DNA of 45,926 bases from UHGV virus genome UHGV-0253013; one strand, written 5' to 3'. A model generated the notes under the pieces. The model saw only the letters and a list, made by a program, of their open reading frames with translations. It did not search any database and was not told the origin of the DNA. Positions within the stretch are counted from its first letter, which is position 1. Every line of letters starts with the position of its first letter. Source of the stretch: a virus. Below are positions 21,557 through 37,952 of the stretch, in pieces. The position numbers and the translations under genes were made by a program.

Positions 21557-21715
21557 TTTTAAGCTCCTCAGGATGCGATGATTTTAGCGGCACGAAGTTG
21601 TGCCGGTAAGGCGTTAAGTTGAGTGCCTACCGCGTTAACCGCAGTCTGTGCGGACGTAGCAACCGCGGCAAGCCTTTTCCGGTCTTAGACATAATTTACC
21701 TCTTAGTAAATGAAA

Positions 21716-21735
21716 AGAGGGACCGAAGTCCCTCT
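21716..21735 (-). terminator. terminator hairpin downstream of the capsid gene
   Basis: AGAGGGAC-CGAA-GTCCCTCT hairpin; on the minus strand it is followed by TTTCATTT; 17 nt below the capsid stop. Confidence 0.5.
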
Positions 21736-21751
21736 CGATTATAGCTTAACC

Positions 21752-22801
21752 TTAAGACCCGACACCAGTTACCAGGAAGGCGATCGGTACGTGCTTACGC
21801 TCAACCACACGGTTCCAGTTGGAGGCGTTCGCCAGGTCCTGCCAGGAAGCAGAGCGCGGGGTAGTCTCGGTGCCGTTGCCGGTGATTACTGCGCTGGTGA
21901 AGCTGTAGCCCAGTGGGTGCAGCAACCAGGTCTTACGGGTCCACAGGGTTTCTACGCCGCCGCCGTTACCACGGGACGCTTCGCGCTCGTATTCCAGCGG
22001 GTTGGACGGAGAACCTTCGCCATAACCGATAGCGCCGTTACCGAAGATAATGGAGATGAACTTACGGCTCGTGGCAGTGCCGACTACGGTCATGCTGTCG
22101 TCAACAATCACGCGGTAGCCCTGGTAGGTGGCAAACATGGTGTTGTTGTCAGCGTCTTTGATGAAGTCAATAAGCTGCTGCTTACGCGCCTGTGCATAAA
22201 CGAAGCTGTGCATGGCGATAGCGCCCAGCACTTCACCGCCGTTGCCCATCAATGCATCGCCCATAGTCTGGGTAGCGTCGATGAACGCACCTGCGTCGAA
22301 ACCAAGAGTAGCGGACACGTCGATTACCATGTCGTTCTGCTCGTGGTACGCGTCGGTAGCGGCTACGTTGTCATTGTACAGACCAAGCGCAGTAGCAATC
22401 AGACGGCGTTGTGCCTGACGCTGCCAGAAGTTATCCAGGCGAGAAGCCACGGATTGCAGCGGATTCTGACTGGTCAGTTCGACAGTCAAATCCGCCTGAC
22501 CAAAACCTTCGTTCAGGTACGCAACGCGCGCCATCATCTCACCAGTCTGAACGTTACGAGGGGTTGCGATGTCCTGGTACACGTCGTTCGAGTAGTTAGG
22601 CTCGATGGAGGTGTCAATCGCTTTCCAGAAAGGAATATTAGCGATGTTGGACGGACCACGAGCAATCTCAGCAGCGTATGGAGTCGGGGTCAGAATACCG
22701 GACTGGAAGAACGCGGTTTTTTCTACCGGGTCCTCTGTCATATAAGACGCCAGGACCGGGATGTTGCCAGTTACGATATCGCCGATAGTGGTAATTGCCA
22801 T
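21752..22801 (-). CDS. major capsid protein
   Basis: 349 aa; GAGGAAA RBS; follows the scaffold gene and precedes the decoration and connector genes; terminator directly downstream. Confidence 0.7.
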   Translation of the reverse strand: MAITTIGDIVTGNIPVLASYMTEDPVEKTAFFQSGILTPTPYAAEIARGPSNIANIPFWKAIDTSIEPNYSNDVYQDIATPRNVQTGEMMARVAYLNEGFGQADLTVELTSQNPLQSVASRLDNFWQRQAQRRLIATALGLYNDNVAATDAYHEQNDMVIDVSATLGFDAGAFIDATQTMGDALMGNGGEVLGAIAMHSFVYAQARKQQLIDFIKDADNNTMFATYQGYRVIVDDSMTVVGTATSRKFISIIFGNGAIGYGEGSPSNPLEYEREASRGNGGGVETLWTRKTWLLHPLGYSFTSAVITGNGTETTPRSASWQDLANASNWNRVVERKHVPIAFLVTGVGS

Positions 22802-22803
22802 TA

Positions 22804-23505
22804 TTATTTCCTCAGGGCTTTAAGTTGCCGTTCAAATTCGGCAGGGTTCGATTTATACAGGGCTAAACGCTCTGCTTCACTCATGTCTTTAAACGCTGGT
22901 GCGGCCCCGCCGCCTTTGCTACCGGAAGCCCCGCCGCCGGAAGCTGCATTTGCTTTAATCAAATGCGAAAACGCTTTGTGTTCGCGCAGGTATTTGCGGA
23001 ACTGTTCCGGGTCAGTCGTGATTACGTTACCGTCTGCGCCGACAAACTTAGTAACCACGTCATCGCCTTCGAACTCAGTCTTAACGAACGGCGCAAGAAT
23101 GTCCACTGCTTCCGGGGTAATAAAGTCACCTGCGAAAGAGCCTAACACCGCTTTACGTTCGCTGCCGAGGATGCGCTCTGCCATTCTGGAGATGCGACCA
23201 TCTTTCTCGGCCAGCACCGGGTCATACTGGCTACGAATCGTTTTTTCGAACTCGTCCATCTTACCGGCGGCTTTTAACGCCTCCTGGTGTGCGCGCTGCC
23301 GTTCTTCTTCGGCCTCTTTTGCTTTACGGGCGGCTTCTTTCTTCTCCGCCAGCAATGCTTCCTGATTGGCCTTAAGCCCGGCAACTTCTTTCGCAATCAG
23401 CGCCTGAACTTCTTCAGCGGTGAACATTTTTGGCGCATCACCGCCGCCAGATTTATCTTCTGCTCCAGCTTCTTCCTGGAACGGATAGCGTAAAAAACGA
23501 TTCAT
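22804..23505 (-). CDS. scaffolding protein
   Basis: Ala/Glu/Lys-rich helical protein (EEERQRAHQEALKAAGK) upstream of the capsid gene. Start uncertain: track start 23559 is TTG; internal ATGs at 23505 and 23427. Confidence 0.55.
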   Translation of the reverse strand: MNRFLRYPFQEEAGAEDKSGGGDAPKMFTAEEVQALIAKEVAGLKANQEALLAEKKEAARKAKEAEEERQRAHQEALKAAGKMDEFEKTIRSQYDPVLAEKDGRISRMAERILGSERKAVLGSFAGDFITPEAVDILAPFVKTEFEGDDVVTKFVGADGNVITTDPEQFRKYLREHKAFSHLIKANAASGGGASGSKGGGAAPAFKDMSEAERLALYKSNPAEFERQLKALRK

Positions 23506-23587
23506 AGTCAGTATGTCCCCTGGACGTTTGAATCCGGGCCACCCGGATTTACATGTCAAGAATAAATTATTCCAACATGCAAGGCAA

Positions 23588-23851
23588 CTATTCCAGAATA
23601 TTCCTCACGTAATCCTGCAACATGAACACTTTCAGTCTCAGTTGCCGTACACATTCGGCATTCTGAACGTCGATAGCTAAATCCTCGTCAGCGTCACTAC
23701 TTGGCGGTGCCAGTTTGCACGGAGGCTGCATCATCGTCGTATCCGGGGATGGAATTGGCGTTTGCGACGGCGCGGGACTTGAGCAGGACGCGAGCATCGT
23801 CGAAAGTGCACACGCTGCGACCAGGCGTTTTAATGTACTTAACGACTTCAC
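23588..23851 (-). CDS. o-spanin (outer-membrane lipoprotein, Rz1-like)
   Basis: Signal peptide with lipobox LASC, Pro-rich mature region; starts inside the i-spanin gene in another frame and extends past its stop. Confidence 0.55.
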   Translation of the reverse strand: MKSLSTLKRLVAACALSTMLASCSSPAPSQTPIPSPDTTMMQPPCKLAPPSSDADEDLAIDVQNAECVRQLRLKVFMLQDYVRNILE

Positions 23852-24083
23852 GGGTAATCACCTCTGATTTCGTCTTGCCTTCGTTGTCAGCGGCGGCGGC
23901 CTTCGATTCATCCTGCTGCTGCCGTTGTGTTTTCTTCACTAACTCAGCCTGTGCTTTCTGCTGTTGCTGCGAAACTAGATTCGCCCGGCCTTCGTTCCAG
24001 CCGCTGCGATACTGGTATATGCCGTGGGCGTAAGCCAGGATGGTGAAACATGCCCACGCTACGAAAGTTGCTTTAAGATTCAT
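23697..24083 (-). CDS. i-spanin (Rz-like)
   Basis: N-terminal TM segment ATFVAWACFTILAYAHGIY followed by a Gln/Lys-rich coiled coil. Confidence 0.6.
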   Translation of the reverse strand: MNLKATFVAWACFTILAYAHGIYQYRSGWNEGRANLVSQQQQKAQAELVKKTQRQQQDESKAAAADNEGKTKSEVITREVVKYIKTPGRSVCTFDDARVLLKSRAVANANSIPGYDDDAASVQTGTAK

Positions 24084-24307
24084 GTTTCCCCTTTCTCGAT
24101 AAGTAAAGCCCCGCCATAAAGCGGGGCGCTAGTCCTTATCATTTAAACATAGAAACGGCGTAATCTCAGTAAACCAGTTACTTTTTACACAAGCAATAGA
24201 CTATGGCCCTTCCGAACGCGTCAGCGTAACTACACTCAGGACTTACGTCCCGCTCCGTTACCTGCCCGCGCCGCGGTCGCTTGTTCATACTTCACAAGCT
24301 CAGGTGG

Positions 24308-24350
24308 AGCTTAGCACATTTTTAGTGAAAAGTCAACTATTCGAATAGTT
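24308..24350 (-). promoter_or_regulatory. candidate promoter (TTGACT-N17-TAAGCT, minus strand) with a perfect 16-bp palindrome over the -35
   Basis: Plus-strand AACTATTCGAATAGTT (24335-24350) is a perfect palindrome of GAATAGTT half-sites; reverse complement gives TTGACT, 17 nt, TAAGCT. Confidence 0.35.
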
Positions 24351-24398
24351 TATTCCAACATTTACAATTGAGCGGAATAACTGGAATAATCACAGACA

Positions 24399-24424
24399 TT
24401 AAAAAAGCCCCTTTCGGGGCCTCT
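24399..24424 (-). terminator. rho-independent terminator after the Ig-like gene
   Basis: Minus-strand GCCCCGAAAGGGGC hairpin followed by TTTTTT; just below the stop at 24427. Confidence 0.6.
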
Positions 24425-24426
24425 TA

Positions 24427-24888
24427 TCATTCTGGCTTAGTGACCTTCGCCGCTTTACTCACAGCCTCCACTCCACCGGCATCGGTGACTTTAACAAAGT
24501 ATTCACCTACCGCATTATCCATCAGAGACAAAGCCTCTTCGGGTGCGTTTACTACTTCCTTCCCGTCTTTGTACCAGGTCAGCGTATATGGTGCTTTACC
24601 AGCCTTAACTTCGACAGTGATAGTTGCGCTGCCGTCAGTGAGTTCAGTGTCTTTCGGTTGCACAGAGAAATACACATCGCCTGCGTCCGCCAGATACGGA
24701 ATTTCATAAAGCATGCCCGCCACCGGTAGCGCAATACCGGTTTTATCTGCAAACGGCATATCGTCTACTGGTGTACCGAGTACACTCTCATCTTCAATAA
24801 ACACCACGTTCTCGCCAGAGCCAGACACGCGGGCGTACTGGACTACGCGACGCGACGGTACATCAGTAACTTTGAAAAAGCCCATCAT
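24427..24888 (-). CDS. Ig-like domain protein (paralog of 21215..21556)
   Basis: C-terminal KAPYTLTWYKDGKEVVNA...GEYFVKV shares the APY..WYKD Ig-like signature. Confidence 0.5.
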   Translation of the reverse strand: MMGFFKVTDVPSRRVVQYARVSGSGENVVFIEDESVLGTPVDDMPFADKTGIALPVAGMLYEIPYLADAGDVYFSVQPKDTELTDGSATITVEVKAGKAPYTLTWYKDGKEVVNAPEEALSLMDNAVGEYFVKVTDAGGVEAVSKAAKVTKPE

Positions 24889-26194: not shown

Positions 26195-26659
26195 ATGATG
26201 TACTTTGTGTACATAGGCGCGATATGCGCCGCCAACTTTTCGGTATCCGTTTTCGGTCCGTGGGCAACTCCTATAAACGCTTTTGTTCTTATCGGTCTTG
26301 ATTTTGTGATAAGAGATAAGTTGCATGAAAGAATCGGTGTGCGAAAAATATTTATACTCATAGTTGTTGCGGGGGTAATAAGTTACGCCATTAACCCTGC
26401 AACGGGTAAGATTGCCTCTGCAAGTGTGGTGGCATTCGCATTTGCTGCGTTGGTAGACGCGATTGTGTACCAGTTGCTTATTAACCAAAAGTGGCTAGTA
26501 AAGTCTAACGTCAGTAACACAGCGGCATCCGCTGTTGATTCGTTTATTTTTCCTTTAATCGCCTTTGGGGCTTTCATGCCGCTTGTAGTTCTCGGGCAAT
26601 TCGCCGCTAAAGTTATCGGGGGCGCTACCTGGTCACTCCTGTTGAGGAAAGTTAAATGA
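26195..26659 (+). CDS. yhhQ: YhhQ-like membrane protein (7-deazaguanine precursor transporter family), short form
   Basis: Multi-TM protein; segments KSNVSNTAASAVDSFIFPLIAFG and ASVVAFAFAALVDAIVYQLL resemble remembered E. coli YhhQ motifs (no alignment run); adjacent to a DpdA-like gene. Confidence 0.55.
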   Translation: MMYFVYIGAICAANFSVSVFGPWATPINAFVLIGLDFVIRDKLHERIGVRKIFILIVVAGVISYAINPATGKIASASVVAFAFAALVDAIVYQLLINQKWLVKSNVSNTAASAVDSFIFPLIAFGAFMPLVVLGQFAAKVIGGATWSLLLRKVK

Positions 26660-27390
26660 CAGTACACTACCACGGCGGCCCTATTTGGGGTGGGGGTGAA
26701 CTTATAAAAGCGTTGTACAGAGGGGGAGGTGCTCTGGTGTCCTATGCGCGTCCAGACCAGATACGAAAGATAGCCGCCATGAGATGTAAATTAGTACTGG
26801 ATAACGGTGCTTTTTCAACGTGGAAGAAAGCCCCGGAAAACATAGACTGGAGTGCACACTGGGCAGGATATTATGATTTTGTTGGTGAGTGGTTCAGCCG
26901 TATTGAGTGGTTCATAATACCTGACGTTATCGAAGGTTCCGAGGAGGAAAACGACGCGTTAATAGAAACTGTGCCGGATTGGTTAATGCCCAAGGCTGTC
27001 CCGGTGTGGCATAGTGACGAGAGTATAAGAAGACTGATAAAACTATGCAGGAAGTTCCCTCGAGTTGCTATAGGCTGCTGCGGCCCACACAGGGCTATAC
27101 GTTCTAAGTCGTGGGAAAAAAGAATGGATCAGGCGTTTAATGCGGTTTACAGAAACCGGAAACTAGATGTAAAACTACACGGACTTAGAATGCTGGATGG
27201 AAGGGCGTTAAGCCGCTACCCTTTTGATAGCGCAGACAGCACAAACGTAGCTATAAATGTACCAAAAACGAAGGCAAGACTGCCTAACATAACCGATAAA
27301 CTACACCGCACAGCTATAATGCGGCACACGATAGAAATGGTGAAACCACCCTCGGTTGGTGAATGGTTATTTAAAACTAAGGCCCCATAA
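26656..27390 (+). CDS. dpdA: DpdA-like transglycosylase (candidate 7-deazaguanine DNA-modifying enzyme)
   Basis: 244 aa, translationally coupled to the YhhQ-like gene. Call rests on a remembered resemblance to short phage DpdA/TGT-like proteins (YHGGPIWGG, LVLDNGAFS, FIIPDVIEGSEEEND) and on context. Confidence 0.5.
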   Translation: MTVHYHGGPIWGGGELIKALYRGGGALVSYARPDQIRKIAAMRCKLVLDNGAFSTWKKAPENIDWSAHWAGYYDFVGEWFSRIEWFIIPDVIEGSEEENDALIETVPDWLMPKAVPVWHSDESIRRLIKLCRKFPRVAIGCCGPHRAIRSKSWEKRMDQAFNAVYRNRKLDVKLHGLRMLDGRALSRYPFDSADSTNVAINVPKTKARLPNITDKLHRTAIMRHTIEMVKPPSVGEWLFKTKAP

Positions 27391-27406
27391 CGGGGCCTTT
27401 TTCTTT
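27379..27406. terminator. bidirectional terminator between the DpdA-like and portal genes
   Basis: AAGGCCCC-ATAA-CGGGGCCTT hairpin followed by TTTCTTT; both convergent stops lie in or beside it. Confidence 0.55.
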
Positions 27407-28874: not shown

Positions 28875-29029
28875 AGATATAGACCCTCGGGTATGGGTGT
28901 CAAAAGCCTAATAAAAATTAGGTTGCAAGTCACCAGAAACTCGCTACTGCGAGTTTTACTTGCACCGGGCTGGCGGTCAATATATCTTATCATTAAGCAG
29001 ATAAAAATGAATTGTTGGAGGGGATACGT

Positions 29030-30409
29030 ATGGGCAGAAGAATAACTGAAGAAGAAATCAAAAACCGGTTAGCTATGTTTGGGTTTAAATTGGTTGAATA
29101 TGGCGGGTCGCAAGTAGCAAAATCCGTTATAAAATGCCCCAATGGACACGAGGAATTGAAGTCGCTTAACACCTTCACGGCTAATGGTGTGCGCTGTAAA
29201 TCTTGCGCTGCTGCTGAAAGGAGTCTGGCGTACAGCACCGACGAGACCGAAGCGAGAAGGATAGTCGAGGACATGGGGTATTCGCTGATAAAATACGGCG
29301 GCAATTTGTACCGCAAAAAATCTACCGTCCAATGTGCAAACGGTCATGTGCGCGAAGTTCGCATAGGAAATATGGTTAAGGGTCATCGCTGCAAAAAGTG
29401 CGTGGCGGAAGCAATGTGTTTGGCGGAAGACGTGGTTAACACCAGACTACCAGATGGGGTCAAGATGGATTTTTACTGCGGCAACACGCGGGGGCTTAGT
29501 CTATTTTCTTGCGAAAAAGGGCACTCGTGGTCCGCATCCGTGAATAACGTAGTGTCTCAACAAACGAAATGTCCTAAATGCTCTAATAACGTAAGTGGTA
29601 TGGAAAAAGAAGTTCTGTCGTTTATCCGCGGAGTATACCCAGGTGTTGTCAATACGTCCGTACGGTCGCTTATCTCGCCGTTTGAGCTGGACATAGTATT
29701 GCCGGAGATTAAGGTGGCCATAGAATTTAACGGCATCTATTGGCATTCCGAGGCGAATGGTAAACACCGTAACTACCACATAAATAAGAGATTAGCGTGT
29801 GAGAAACTTGGGTACAGGCTGATAAGCGTACGAAGCGACCTTTGGTTAGAGAAGCGAGAGCATGTTGAGCGCATTTTGAAGAACGCGGTAGGGGTACGTA
29901 CTGTGTCTATTTTTGCCAGAAAATGTCGTGTGGTAGAGATAGCCAACAAAGACGCATTCCAGTTCTGTGAGGACAATCACATCCAGGGTGGGACAAAGGC
30001 TACAAAAGCGTATGCATTACTTCACGCTGGTGAGGTGGTTGCGGTAATGACTTTGGTACATTGGCGCCGCAAGGACTCATGGGAACTGGTGCGATATTGC
30101 ACCAGTACGTCCGTGCCCGGTGGCCTAAGTAAGCTGTGGAAACATGTGACGCAAGAAAACAACATTAAGCAAGCGTTCACTTATACCGACCGTGACCTTT
30201 TCACCGGTGCATCTTACGCAGAAGCTGGGTTTATATTTGATAGCTGCTCCGTAGGGTTTCGCGTTGTCGTAGGAACTCGTACAGAATCCCGCCAGAAATG
30301 GGGCAAAGCTCCCGAGGGTCTTACCCAAACAGAGTGGTACGAACGAGAAAAAGTGTCGCGCATATGGGATAGCGGTCAGGATAAGTGGGAATGGGTTAAA
30401 GGGGCATAA
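29030..30409 (+). CDS. putative homing endonuclease: three Zn-ribbon-like repeats plus DUF559/Vsr-like nuclease domain
   Basis: ATG at 29030 after GGAGGGG. Repeats CPNGHEELKS...CKSC, CANGHVREV...CKKC, CEKGHSWS...CPKC; then ELDIVLPEIKVAIEFNGIYWHSE; opposite strand between portal and terminase. Confidence 0.5.
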   Translation: MGRRITEEEIKNRLAMFGFKLVEYGGSQVAKSVIKCPNGHEELKSLNTFTANGVRCKSCAAAERSLAYSTDETEARRIVEDMGYSLIKYGGNLYRKKSTVQCANGHVREVRIGNMVKGHRCKKCVAEAMCLAEDVVNTRLPDGVKMDFYCGNTRGLSLFSCEKGHSWSASVNNVVSQQTKCPKCSNNVSGMEKEVLSFIRGVYPGVVNTSVRSLISPFELDIVLPEIKVAIEFNGIYWHSEANGKHRNYHINKRLACEKLGYRLISVRSDLWLEKREHVERILKNAVGVRTVSIFARKCRVVEIANKDAFQFCEDNHIQGGTKATKAYALLHAGEVVAVMTLVHWRRKDSWELVRYCTSTSVPGGLSKLWKHVTQENNIKQAFTYTDRDLFTGASYAEAGFIFDSCSVGFRVVVGTRTESRQKWGKAPEGLTQTEWYEREKVSRIWDSGQDKWEWVKGA

Positions 30410-33823: not shown

Positions 33824-33852
33824 AATATAATAGGGTCGATGGTAATAGTCAA
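33824..33852 (-). promoter_or_regulatory. sigma70-like promoter (TTGACT-N17-TATATT, minus strand)
   Basis: Minus-strand read GTTGACT, 17 nt, TATATT; about 35 nt upstream of the ATG at 33789. Confidence 0.5.
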
Positions 33853-34059
33853 CTAGTCATCGCAGAAAATAGATAAAAAAAATCCCGGCTGGGTCAGGGC
33901 CGGGATAAAACTGGAGAGCAGAGGGATGGAACAGGAGGTGATTTAAGTATCGTCGGATTGGTCTTAGGTGTCAACCTTTTCGACTCCCGCCAATCATACC
34001 CCAAATCACGCCAACTACCGCACCAGCTCCAATAGCCAGGAAAATGAAGTCAAACTCTG

Positions 34060-34545
34060 TCATTTAACAGCCCTCCCGATAGCCTCAGCCTCTTGCCACG
34101 GTTTACCGTCGAACAGCGCCAGACGCCCGGCGGTCCGGCGACGCAGACCAAGTAATGGTTTGCCGTTCTGGTTGATGAACAGCGCCAGCTTAGCCCGCAG
34201 TGTCGCGATATCACCAGAACGCAGCGCCTTACCGGTGCCTGTAGTAGCTGCAATCACACCAGAACCCGCGTTATAGACCAGGTCGCAAACAGCGTCGAAC
34301 TGCGCCTGTGTCAGTGAATGGTGAGCTGCTGCGTCAACCGCAGCTACGGCTTTAGCCATATCGCGATTCAGTAACAGGAGGCCCTGCCCCGGGGTGATGG
34401 TCTGGCCCGCCTTAACGTGCGGACCATAGCTCCCGTAGCCGATGGTCAGATACTTCTCGTTCGGCGTAGCACGATACGCAGTACCACGGAATCCCTCGAA
34501 CGCAGCGGTAAAATGCAACCCATTATCTGAAATGTTTCGAGACAC
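34060..34545 (-). CDS. endolysin, lysozyme-type (GH24-like)
   Basis: ISDNGLHFTAAFEGFRGTAYRA...TIGYG matches the T4/lambda-R lysozyme N-terminal signature. Start placed at GTG (34545) with GGAGGA 8 nt upstream; the track's TTG start at 34596 has no RBS. Confidence 0.7.
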   Translation of the reverse strand: MSRNISDNGLHFTAAFEGFRGTAYRATPNEKYLTIGYGSYGPHVKAGQTITPGQGLLLLNRDMAKAVAAVDAAAHHSLTQAQFDAVCDLVYNAGSGVIAATTGTGKALRSGDIATLRAKLALFINQNGKPLLGLRRRTAGRLALFDGKPWQEAEAIGRAVK

Positions 34546-34795
34546 GCTTATGTCCTCCGTATGACAGCCACGCCTGACGAATCTGGCGCAGCGCAACTAA
34601 TGTGATTAATGTCCCAGGCAGCGTTGGCGACATACTGCCCTGTAACAGGTGGATGCATCCGGCAGCGCAAACGATAGCAGTCAGGATGTAGAGCACCCGA
34701 CCAAATAACCCATCGTCAACACTGGGGTGGTATACATTAAACAGCGATGTGCCACCGATTGCCAGCATACCGCCGAACCAGAATAACTCATTCAT
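34523..34795 (-). CDS. second lysis membrane protein (holin/antiholin-like, 2 TM)
   Basis: Start at the internal Met (MNELFWFGGMLAIGG...); two hydrophobic segments; overlaps both neighbours. Confidence 0.4.
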   Translation of the reverse strand: MNELFWFGGMLAIGGTSLFNVYHPSVDDGLFGRVLYILTAIVCAAGCIHLLQGSMSPTLPGTLITLVALRQIRQAWLSYGGHKRVSKHFR

Positions 34796-35096
34796 CCGGG
34801 CCTCCTCGACGTGCGATGTATTCTCCGGCGACGATACCGGAGAGGCGGGAATAGATAGGCATCCAGAGAATAGCGATAATGAAGCCCAGGCCAGATATCT
34901 CGCGTTCGCCGGTAATACCAAACCATTGGGCCGCGAGAGGCGCACCAAATACGGCGCAGGTGAAGCCGGTAGCGATAAAGCAGAAGCCATCAATAGGGCC
35001 AGAAATAACGGACTTATGTTGCCGTAGGCCGATTATCCCTCCGGCTAGTGCGGCAGCGAGAAGCCACCCCGTCACTGTTTCAGTAAATTTATCCAA
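34788..35096 (-). CDS. holin-like membrane protein
   Basis: 102 aa with hydrophobic helices (WLLAAALAGGIIGL, FCFIATGFTCAVFGAPLA, GLGFIIAILWMPIY) and charged C-terminus; immediately upstream of the endolysin. Confidence 0.5.
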   Translation of the reverse strand: MDKFTETVTGWLLAAALAGGIIGLRQHKSVISGPIDGFCFIATGFTCAVFGAPLAAQWFGITGEREISGLGFIIAILWMPIYSRLSGIVAGEYIARRGGPDE

Positions 35097-35171
35097 GATG
35101 AATCCTCCAGGTGCGTATTAAGTATGCAGTAACTGGAGGATACCACGGGTAGGAATTATCCTAATAACGGT

Positions 35172-37594: not shown

Positions 37595-37821
37595 GAGAAT
37601 AGTTACGTTGCCGTTGTGATTCTTCGGGGAAGGTTGTGCCTTTATTCTTATTACTTGGTAACTAAAGGGCAGGCCTTAAGCCTGCCCAATAATCGTTACA
37701 TTTTTACGGTTGCGAATCTACGGCACATTAAGAAACAGTAGATATTTCAGCGGGTTACTTCTTTAAATGAGATTTAGATACACTTATCCTTAAACCCCAA
37801 GGCAAGCATCTCAGCTGTCTG

Positions 37822-37862
37822 GGAGGGGTTGACGAATCCCTCGGGGAGGGTTCGTCAACTCC
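37822..37862. repeat. imperfect inverted repeat centred on TTGACGAA / TTCGTCAA in the divergent control region
   Basis: GGAGGGGTTGACGAATCCCTC followed directly by GGGGAGGGTTCGTCAACTCC; arms pair over about 17 bp with small bulges. Confidence 0.5.
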
Positions 37863-37952
37863 GTAATATATACAAGTCCCAAAACCATTATACAAACATG
37901 TGTCAAGAACTTTCAATAACATTTTTGTAAAGATTAAATATTACAGAGATTG

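Follow-up and report, generated by a model that had tools for sequence, protein, structure and literature searches.

A probable Jersey-family spanin pair in the head module of a Kagunavirus genome, away from the holin-endolysin cassette

The spanin genes and their neighbours

The window, that is, the whole stretch of DNA analysed here, is a viral sequence of 45,926 nt (UHGV-0253013) that groups with Kagunavirus (Guernseyvirinae). For a 2.2-kb query around the spanin locus, the best matches are the Escherichia phages KMB36, JSSK01, and K1ind1/2, with 94-95% identity over the full length of the query, and on these matches the sequence is identified as the genome of a virulent K1ind/K1G-like siphophage. 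It contains no tRNA or tmRNA genes. A preliminary description had located an i-spanin and an o-spanin gene, overlapping in different frames, at 23588-24083, between an Ig-like and a scaffold gene in the head-assembly block and about 10 kb from the holin-endolysin cassette. Both reading frames were recovered there on the minus strand, both neighbours have PHROG matches, and the distance from the endolysin stop (34060) to the i-spanin start (24083) is 9,977 nt. The features at the locus are listed in the direction of transcription.

24888..24427, minus strand: Hoc-like/Ig-like decoration gene (phrog_3945)
24401..24420, minus strand: predicted intrinsic terminator directly 3' of the Ig-like gene, GCCCC GAAA GGGGC (GCCCCGAAAGGGGC) followed by T6
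24308..24336, minus strand: predicted sigma-70 promoter, TTGACT, 17 nt, TGn-TAAGCT (extended -10), called from sequence and conservation
24084..24302, minus strand: conserved non-coding leader of about 220 nt with a 5' hairpin, a three-helix hairpin (24277..24208), and a long hairpin (24141..24094)
23697..24083, minus strand: i-spanin gene, an ORF of 128 aa with an ATG start (phrog_2536 "Rz-like spanin", E 2.9e-54 over the full length)
23857..23864, minus strand: Shine-Dalgarno (SD) sequence of the o-spanin gene, GAGGTGAT, read from the sequence and lying inside the i-spanin reading frame
23588..23851, minus strand: o-spanin gene, 87 aa, GTG start (phrog_5672, E 4.5e-30; phrog_1267, E 1.6e-18)
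22804..23505, minus strand: head scaffolding protein gene (phrog_206, E 5e-55; synteny), 82 nt after the o-spanin gene
21752..22801, minus strand: major capsid protein gene, an ORF whose K1ind1 counterpart carries the annotation major head protein; it would be the final cistron of the unit
21715..21736, minus strand: terminator-like hairpin after the capsid gene, 9-bp stem and T-rich tail; predicted end of the unit

According to PHROG matches, the pair is thus flanked by the Hoc-like/Ig-like gene and the scaffold gene, with a MuF-like gene further upstream and the capsid gene further downstream.

The i-spanin is a protein with a single N-terminal transmembrane domain (TMD), followed by a long alpha-helix, a linker, a second helix, and a periplasmic cysteine, Cys92. 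Residues 5-23 (ATFVAWACFTILAYAHGIY) are hydrophobic (KD19 1.35), are preceded by K4, and give way to a Gln/Lys/Ala-rich stretch. An AF2 model built from one sequence as input, with low overall confidence (pTM 0.30), contains a helix at residues 3-84 (pLDDT about 80 up to residue 60) and a low-confidence helix at 94-107. Hydropathy and the model agree with the single N-terminal TMD and largely helical periplasmic domain of an i-spanin, and we infer a type II inner-membrane protein with N-in, C-out topology. A Pfam search with this protein returned no family at E <= 0.1; its K1ind1 counterpart is annotated as an Rz-like spanin.

The o-spanin begins with a lipoprotein signal composed of an n-region with K2, K8, and R9, an h-region (LVAACALSTML), and the lipobox LASC with Cys23, and has Ser rather than Asp at the +2 position. 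The predicted mature part is small (65 aa), contains 14% proline, and carries Cys45 and Cys67, as would suit an outer-membrane lipoprotein. Its SD sequence ends 5 nt 5' of the GTG, and the form GAGGT[GA]AT is kept in all Kagunavirus loci. In Pfam, the o-spanin matched only the DUF4148 signal peptide, below threshold. A scan of the entire window for lipoprotein signals preceded by an SD sequence returned the o-spanin ORF and one antisense ORF inside the primase gene. The LASC lipobox and the proline-rich character attributed to the o-spanin at the outset were therefore confirmed, and the signal-peptide, lipobox, and TM predictions proposed with them located a TMD in the i-spanin and a lipobox in the o-spanin.

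The o-spanin gene lies in the +1 frame relative to the i-spanin gene; 155 nt are shared, and 109 nt extend beyond the i-spanin ORF. Among the embedded, overlapped, and separated arrangements known for spanin genes, with the o-spanin gene downstream of or inside its partner, this is the overlapped type. In Cornellvirus relatives, the overlap is just 8 nt.

Conservation, family membership, and function of the pair

The spanin locus was extracted from 48 viral contigs and several GenBank phages, and a 2.2-kb query around it matched 484 phage records. Both ORFs, the o-spanin start, the SD sequence, and the lipobox cysteine are present in all Kagunavirus and Jerseyvirus loci examined. Residue conservation was compared across six lineages, namely Kagunavirus, Jerseyvirus, Cornellvirus, Serratia Tsm2, Klebsiella Kp4862-1, and Dhillonvirus. 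The i-spanin block ITxEVxKY..P.R..C.F is retained in all of them, as are the o-spanin residues P44, C45, D53, D55, D57, L58, D61, V62, C67, L71, and R72. Cysteines that could form homotypic intermolecular disulfides are present: judged from the alignments, Cys45 and Cys67 of the o-spanin occur in six lineages and Cys92 of the i-spanin in five of the six, the Cornellvirus i-spanin being without a periplasmic cysteine. The lipobox takes different forms among relatives (LASC, LSAC, LSGC, LNGC, ITGC, LTAC) around a constant cysteine.

Both spanin genes are under purifying selection, each in its own frame. In 41 distinct sequences, pN/pS was 0.30 in the part coding only for the i-spanin; in the part coding only for the o-spanin, it was 0.107 in the o-spanin frame versus 1.0-2.6 in the wrong frames. 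Within the 155-nt overlap, values were 0.40 in the i-spanin frame and 1.0 in the o-spanin frame, a dominance of the i-spanin frame that fits an overlap coding only for the o-spanin signal peptide and Pro-rich linker. The lack of a signal of its own in the overlap is what might be expected if the o-spanin ORF were an accidental frame and only the 128-aa protein were made. This explanation is almost certainly wrong, since past the overlap the constraint appears in the o-spanin frame only, and the start codon, the 8-nt SD sequence, and the lipobox cysteine are kept in all loci while the form of the lipobox varies.

Overlapped spanins of this kind have been described. Kongari et al. 2018 (PMC6139136) defined a "Jersey" family of overlapped spanins in 27 phages, including Jersey, SETP3, K1G, K1H, K1ind1-3, HK578, EK99P-1, and SO-1, with an overlap of 155 bp, Cys45 and Cys67 as constant residues, and a structured linker connecting two helices; the FSL_SP-031 variant has an 8-bp overlap (PMC6139136). 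The family corresponds to PHROG 2536 and 5672. Membership was judged by 40% or more identity across 40% or more of the periplasmic domain, or by a significant match to the profile; the pair in the window has both profile matches and 62-95% identity to listed members such as K1ind1, SETP3, and L13. It consists of the same proteins (91-95% identity to Kagunavirus members) with the same 155-nt overlap, the same Cys45 and Cys67, and the same two-helix i-spanin, and there is no substantive difference. The few substitutions relative to family members include F7, W10, and T14 in the TMD of the i-spanin and a small number in the o-spanin signal peptide. In GenBank, ORF5 and ORF6 of K1ind1 are annotated as spanins with the remark "overlapping gene", and both genes carry a spanin annotation in many relatives as well.

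The pair resembles lambda Rz/Rz1 in general plan: a type II helical inner-membrane protein and a small Pro-rich outer-membrane lipoprotein, periplasmic cysteines in both, and an o-spanin gene in the +1 frame. It differs in that no sequence similarity is detectable (the Pfam Rz/Rz1 families are unmatched at the gathering threshold), the genes are overlapped rather than fully embedded, and they lie away from the holin and endolysin genes. A further difference is the linker of the Jersey-family i-spanin, which is reported to have beta character, unlike that of lambda (PMC6139136).

Spanins disrupt the outer membrane in the last step of phage infection. By analogy with lambda, the i-spanin would be anchored in the inner membrane, with its helical domain spanning the periplasm, and the o-spanin would sit in the outer membrane as a small lipoprotein. 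Their C-termini would bind each other, and the invariant periplasmic cysteines would give disulfide-linked dimers as in Rz/Rz1. The complex would wait threaded through the peptidoglycan until the holin triggers and the endolysin removes the murein, and would then fuse the inner and outer membranes.

Klebsiella phage Kp4862-1 (OK490415) offers the strongest independent support for a spanin function, albeit from sequence and gene context. It encodes homologues of both proteins (39-47% identity; phrog_2536, E 9e-47; phrog_5672, E 1.7e-22) in the same overlapped architecture, directly after a P21-type holin (PF04971) and a SAR-type PF00959 endolysin, in a contiguous four-gene cassette. The pair in the window, unlike that of Kp4862-1, is in the head module, behind its own predicted promoter and leader. 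Because the Kp4862-1 homologues follow holin and endolysin in a canonical cassette, PHROG 2536/5672 would represent spanins whose genes, in one large lineage, are located in the head module.

The same context weighs against a role outside lysis. A membrane protein and a lipoprotein in the head block, with no Pfam match for either, could be imagined to act in head formation or in exclusion, for example as a Cor/Llp-like superinfection-exclusion lipoprotein. Our literature search also found no experiments on Jersey-family spanins; a functional study of lysis in Jerseyvirus S10 had the holin and two lysins as its sole test objects. We nevertheless regard such a role as very unlikely. Homologues of both proteins fill the spanin slot in Kp4862-1; no second spanin candidate was found in the window, and nothing spanin-like lies beside the endolysin gene, despite the Gram-negative host and an endolysin that is a soluble lysozyme. 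Moreover, the paired architecture, the invariant cysteines, and the acidic, helical C-terminal region match the published description of spanins (PMC6139136). The explanation that the two ORFs are a two-component i-spanin/o-spanin pair of the Jersey family, taken together with the late-unit model given below, is likely to be correct as a whole.

The position of the pair is a property of the lineage. With tblastn, the i-spanin was found in 633 phage records and the o-spanin in 667. The order MuF-like, (Ig-like), i-spanin, o-spanin, scaffold, capsid is common to several genera and was seen in the following phages.

Kagunavirus: K1ind1
Jerseyvirus: PVP-SE2
Cornellvirus: Shemara, CECAV_044
Serratia phage: Tsm2
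Dhillonvirus: TheodorHerzl, bob

The split of the lysis functions had been called uncommon, a view that does not hold. This arrangement occurs throughout the lineage, in over 600 genomes from the databases and in four genera, with spanins in the head module of Kagunavirus, Jerseyvirus, Cornellvirus, and Dhillonvirus. It is also in print. The genome note on the E. coli siphophage Schulenberg states that its spanins are genetically separate from holin and endolysin (PMC6763661), the same separation as in the window, although Schulenberg is more distantly related, its nucleotide similarity to Golestan being about 68% (PMC6763661). Phage T4 supplies a textbook precedent for dispersed lysis genes, as its spanin genes PseT.3/PseT.2 are distant from the holin (t) and endolysin (e) genes (PMC6139136, Fig. 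8 legend), but T4 is a large myovirus with all lysis genes dispersed, and its spanins have a separated architecture and unrelated sequences. No general account of how frequently spanin genes lie apart from the cassette was found in the literature. Because the pair and its position among head genes have already been annotated and published for this phage group, the finding is correct but ordinary, and this applies equally to the architecture and to the separation from the cassette. It does confirm an annotation point: Guernseyvirinae-type genomes carry their sole spanin pair in the head module, and pipelines that seek spanins beside the endolysin gene will miss it. Many database records label one or both genes "hypothetical".

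Lysis cassette, transcription units, and timing

The other lysis genes are situated upstream and share the strand of the packaging and head genes. They are listed here with the predicted signals between the two loci.

34788..35096, minus strand: holin, 102 aa, TTG start (phrog_2359, E 2e-29)
34523..34795, minus strand: second holin-like membrane protein, 90 aa from an internal ATG (phrog_2508, E 2.7e-32), the length of K1ind1 ORF41
about 34060..34545, minus strand: endolysin with a phage lysozyme fold (PF00959, E 8.8e-26; PHROG endolysin families)
33875..33905, minus strand: strong intrinsic terminator about 150 nt after the endolysin gene, 8-bp GC-rich stem and T8; predicted end of the cassette unit
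33852..33824, minus strand: conserved predicted promoter after the cassette terminator
27379..27399, both strands: predicted bidirectional terminator (consensus signal)

These PHROG and PF00959 matches confirm the holin, second membrane protein, and lysozyme that had been assigned to 34060-35096. The endolysin is without an N-terminal SAR domain or TMD; its start is uncertain, and a start at 34545 gives the length of K1ind1 ORF42. Downstream of it there is a 30-aa TM ORF only and no lipobox ORF. A tblastn search with this 30-aa peptide, a short query, gave no match, and the DNA was compared directly instead. The spanin genes therefore do not adjoin the holin and endolysin genes as in a canonical contiguous cassette; the interval holds the terminase, portal, MuF-like, and Ig-like genes. 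In K1ind1, the endolysin-spanin interval is 7.7 kb and is uninterrupted by opposite-strand genes, compared with about 10 kb in the window, where the larger distance is mostly due to plus-strand genes inserted at 29012..30409 and 26195..27390.

Very probably, the cassette is transcribed separately from the spanins, because predicted terminators, opposite-strand inserts, and a conserved promoter lie between the loci. The earlier proposal of two transcription units is thereby supported by three predicted terminators, the inserts, and the spanin promoter, at the level of consensus prediction, since the promoter, the terminators, and the unit boundaries were all called by consensus and the -10 element TAAGCT would be weak without its TG extension. 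The terminator at 33905..33875 is conserved in K1ind1, Bas75, and Jerseyvirus ER7. That at 24420..24401, which is predicted to close the upstream MuF-like/Ig-like unit, is conserved in Kagunavirus and Jerseyvirus and belongs to a repeated terminator family (D2). At the far end, the annotations of PVP-SE2 and Shemara likewise show a terminator following the capsid gene.

The late unit would start at the promoter at 24336..24308 and would comprise the leader of about 220 nt, the i-spanin, o-spanin, scaffold, and major capsid protein genes, and the terminator at 21736..21715. The spanin pair is thus placed, by inference from these predicted boundaries, as the first two cistrons of a late unit that would deliver the spanins together with the most strongly needed late proteins.

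In lambda, spanins build up during late infection and stay inactive as long as the murein is intact, and it is the holin alone that determines when lysis occurs. Since spanins are inert until the murein is gone, the time of their transcription does not set the time of lysis, and on this model unlinked late transcription of the spanins needs no separate timer. The separate timing control that had been read into the split genes is thus not called for under the lambda model. Timing would stay with the holin, whose translation would be limited by a weak start codon and by sequestration of its SD sequence. A 9-bp hairpin (35141..35133 / 35110..35102; -18.9 kcal/mol, z -2.7) includes the holin SD, GGAGGA, in its 3' arm, and in Jerseyvirus ER7 a different, stronger hairpin abuts the holin start. 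The TTG start, the sequestered SD, and the ER7 hairpin together point to translational throttling of the holin as a conserved control.

Two other arrangements of transcription were weighed against the late-unit model. The genes could be expressed on one long late transcript running through the packaging and head genes, so that the separation would be physical only. All of them are on one strand, and the 7.7-kb interval of K1ind1 has no opposite-strand genes. In the window, however, such a transcript would have to pass strong conserved terminators (33905..33875 and 24420..24401) and the bidirectional one at 27379..27399, as well as the plus-strand genes at 29012..30409 and 26195..27390, and conserved predicted promoters (33852..33824 and 24336..24308) are situated along the way; we consider it highly improbable. 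Somewhat more credible, though still unlikely, is a true split in timing, with holin and endolysin in an early operon, spanins expressed late, and the lysis steps timed separately by transcription. A leftward block starts in a divergent control region near 37.5-37.9 kb; the cassette forms the distal end of this block, about 2.5 kb downstream of the control region, and is preceded by small ORFs of unknown function and by promoter-like sites with the motif GAATAGT-N3-CTATTA, which also occurs before replication genes. The spanin promoter is of a different type with its own upstream repeats, and predicted terminators separate the two loci. Against early expression, holin and endolysin made early would need extra post-transcriptional restraint, and spanins in lambda do nothing until the murein is gone. 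The hairpin that sequesters the holin SD and the TTG start are compatible with such restraint, short of proof.

The assignment of the cassette to an early leftward operon, made in the preliminary description, is not supported by transcription data from a relative. K1B4, about 90% identical to the window, has the only transcriptome of a close relative, resolved into broad temporal classes; in this time course, the lysozyme gene (018), the MuF-like gene (028), and the capsid gene (033) are all in the "middle" class (PMC12645636). Just four K1B4 genes are early, and the one named is an HTH gene on the opposite strand (PMC12645636). The published classes include neither the holin nor the spanin genes, and no TSS is given (PMC12645636). 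The late-unit model, with lysis timing left to the holin, is preferred.

Predicted promoter and structured leader

The predicted spanin promoter is conserved in its -35 element and in the motif TGnTAnGCT, and the spacer differs between Kagunavirus and Jerseyvirus. Its distance to the i-spanin ATG is 223-225 nt in Kagunavirus and 197-198 nt in Jerseyvirus (all 47 loci). This distance is fixed even where 200-800 bp of extra DNA follows the Ig-like gene, and insertions in relatives are always upstream of the promoter. Between the terminator and the -35 element is a block that is invariant between the genera and contains ATTATTCCAGTTATTCC, TGTAAAT, GGAATAA, and the palindrome CTATTCGAATAG. Sites of the form GGAATA/TATTCC are clustered in just two places, 24351-24390 and 23568-23604, which flank the spanin pair.

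The leader is predicted to be strongly folded (MFE -76.6 kcal/mol, z -3.04). Its core, ACCGCGG...UUCGGAAGG (24277..24208), occurs in 15 distinct variants, each of which folds alone into the same three-helix hairpin. The 3' hairpin has its core at 24127..24108, with GAUAAG/CUUAUC as an extension (-29.5 kcal/mol, z -4.5); some 10 nt separate its end from the i-spanin SD sequence, and it shows compensatory changes in Jerseyvirus. As MAFFT misaligned the central helices between the two genera, a covariance model (R1) was built from Kagunavirus leaders only and then used to align the Jerseyvirus copies. R1 found one copy in the window, at 97.9 bits, and the Jerseyvirus copies scored 36-40 bits. In the R1 alignment, 92% of cells are paired and 9 of the 22 pairs have changed on both sides, counts that lean towards the model because R1 itself aligned the Jerseyvirus copies. 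The covariation score was 0.351, compared with 0.148 +/- 0.017 for shuffles and at most 0.077 for slid controls, in an alignment that is model-fitted and covers two or three clades. The compensatory evidence for the leader structure is thus suggestive.

A second copy of the leader, the upstream block, or the promoter would have argued for co-regulation. R1 detected no further leader copy in the window, for example before the lysis cassette, and no further copies of the block ATTATTCCAGTTATTCC or of the spanin promoter were found there. Searches with R1 at the Cornellvirus, Serratia, and Dhillonvirus loci gave no detection at E <= 1; by eye only, a resemblance to the leader can be seen in Cornellvirus and in the Serratia relative. 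A search of the whole window against Rfam gave no match at the gathering level, the best sub-threshold match being wcaG at 17.5 bits versus a threshold of 42.

The promoter and the structured leader may be the only new item at this locus. The leader could be an antitermination element, an element for RNase III processing or stability, or a translational switch, and transcription might also be attenuated by the hairpin immediately 5' of the i-spanin gene. It is a tentative idea, rather doubtful at present, that the leader is an undescribed cis-regulatory RNA that gates the spanin-scaffold-capsid unit and so couples the capacity to break the outer membrane to capsid production. The promoter and leader could show how virulent siphophages that depend on the host RNAP switch on their major late unit.

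A 36-aa ORF at 24288..24178 was considered as a product of the leader region and rejected, as it is interrupted in 6 Kagunavirus variants and no Jerseyvirus copy contains it. In PVP-SE2, a small CDS is annotated at the place of this ORF.

Predicted control sequences and variation at the spanin pair

The spanin pair (i-spanin 24083..23697, o-spanin 23851..23588, minus strand) is preceded by a predicted promoter and a leader, and is flanked by short repeated motifs.

24084-24420, minus strand: predicted terminator, invariant repeat block, extended -10 promoter and structured leader of about 220 nt, directly upstream of the i-spanin gene
24331-24357: direct repeat ATGTTGGAATAA..TATTC..TTGAC, before the spanin promoter
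23535-23562: second copy of this repeat, before the scaffold gene
24351-24390 and 23568-23604: clusters of GGAATA/TATTCC half-sites

The promoter and leader are locked in position across 47 Kagunavirus and Jerseyvirus loci, and compensatory changes are present in the core hairpin of the leader (24208-24277). A search of the leader against Rfam matched no family, and the ORF within it lacks conservation. Half-site clusters, defined as three within 150 nt, occur in the window only at the two listed positions, which flank the spanin pair. Each site is identical in Kagunavirus and Jerseyvirus, and the downstream one overlaps the final o-spanin codons (YVRNILE). These clusters and the ATGTTGGAATAA repeat may represent a regulator-binding site.

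Comparison of the extracted relative loci L006-L052 revealed a hot spot for insertions between the Ig-like gene and the spanin promoter. The Ig-like stop and the i-spanin start are 317-343 nt apart in the basal form and 500-1117 nt apart in others, with the extra DNA always upstream of the spanin promoter. The pair itself is chimeric in one of the relative loci (L041 3001-3589, from contig IMGVR_UViG_3300045988_013393). At 118 aa, its i-spanin is a shortened form with an N-terminus of the Kagunavirus type, and the o-spanin that follows 3' of it is of the Cornellvirus type in a nearly separated arrangement, which implies recombination within the spanin pair.

Holin start and the region after the endolysin

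The holin of the lysis cassette begins with a TTG codon (35088-35150 region, minus strand), and its Shine-Dalgarno (SD) sequence GGAGGA falls in the 3' arm of a hairpin of 9 bp, for which the folding energy is -18.9 kcal/mol (z -2.7). In Jerseyvirus ER7, a different and stronger hairpin with a T-run abuts the holin GTG start (L059 895-955; -20.6 kcal/mol, z -5.0). This suggests that throttling of holin expression is conserved between the two phages. Two further features were located at or just past the end of the endolysin gene.

33972-34064, minus strand: 30-aa ORF with a single transmembrane domain (MTEFDFIFLAIGAGAVVGVIWGMIGGSRKG) and the SD sequence GGGAGGG, overlapping the endolysin stop codon
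33868-33974, minus strand: sRNA-like unit just past the endolysin
33974..33946, minus strand: its conserved promoter, TTGACA-17-GATACT
33905..33875, minus strand: strong terminator with T8

The 30-aa ORF could encode an accessory membrane peptide of the lysis cassette. It is present in phage Bas75, where it is labelled hypothetical, K1ind1 has unrelated sequence in its place, and Jerseyvirus lacks the ORF. The sRNA-like unit contains a CU-rich sequence of about 35 nt that begins with CACCUCCUG, a start that resembles the anti-SD end of 16S rRNA. Its layout is kept in Jerseyvirus ER7, and its sRNA matches in Rfam were sub-threshold only.

Divergent control region, palindromes and inserts

37667-37916 region, minus strand: near-consensus promoter TTGAAA-18-TATAAT
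37857..37826, minus strand: perfect 13-bp hairpin 3' of this promoter
37687..37667, minus strand: strong terminator about 200 nt downstream

The stretch from promoter to terminator has no evident ORF. It may represent a short leader or an sRNA; alternatively, the leftward block may start here under the control of antitermination. A promoter sequence upstream of the spanins in Cornellvirus resembles the TTGAAA-18-TATAAT promoter.

A promoter- or operator-like palindrome, GAATAGT-N3-CTATTA, has 13 matches in the window against 0.84 expected. Sites at 2268, 15218, 25991, 33843, 36519, 37564, 41163, 41207 and 44238, some of ambiguous orientation, lie within sigma-70-like promoters ahead of replication, tail-side and moron genes.

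The packaging/head gene row is interrupted by two inserts on the opposite strand.

26195-27390, plus strand: Vut_1-like membrane protein and 244-aa ORF, inserted between portal and MuF-like gene
29012-30409, plus strand: 465-aa protein, encoded between terminase and portal; its matches are DUF4379 zinc-finger and REase-like

Both are absent from K1ind1, and they lengthen the distance from the lysis cassette to the spanins by about 2.3 kb.
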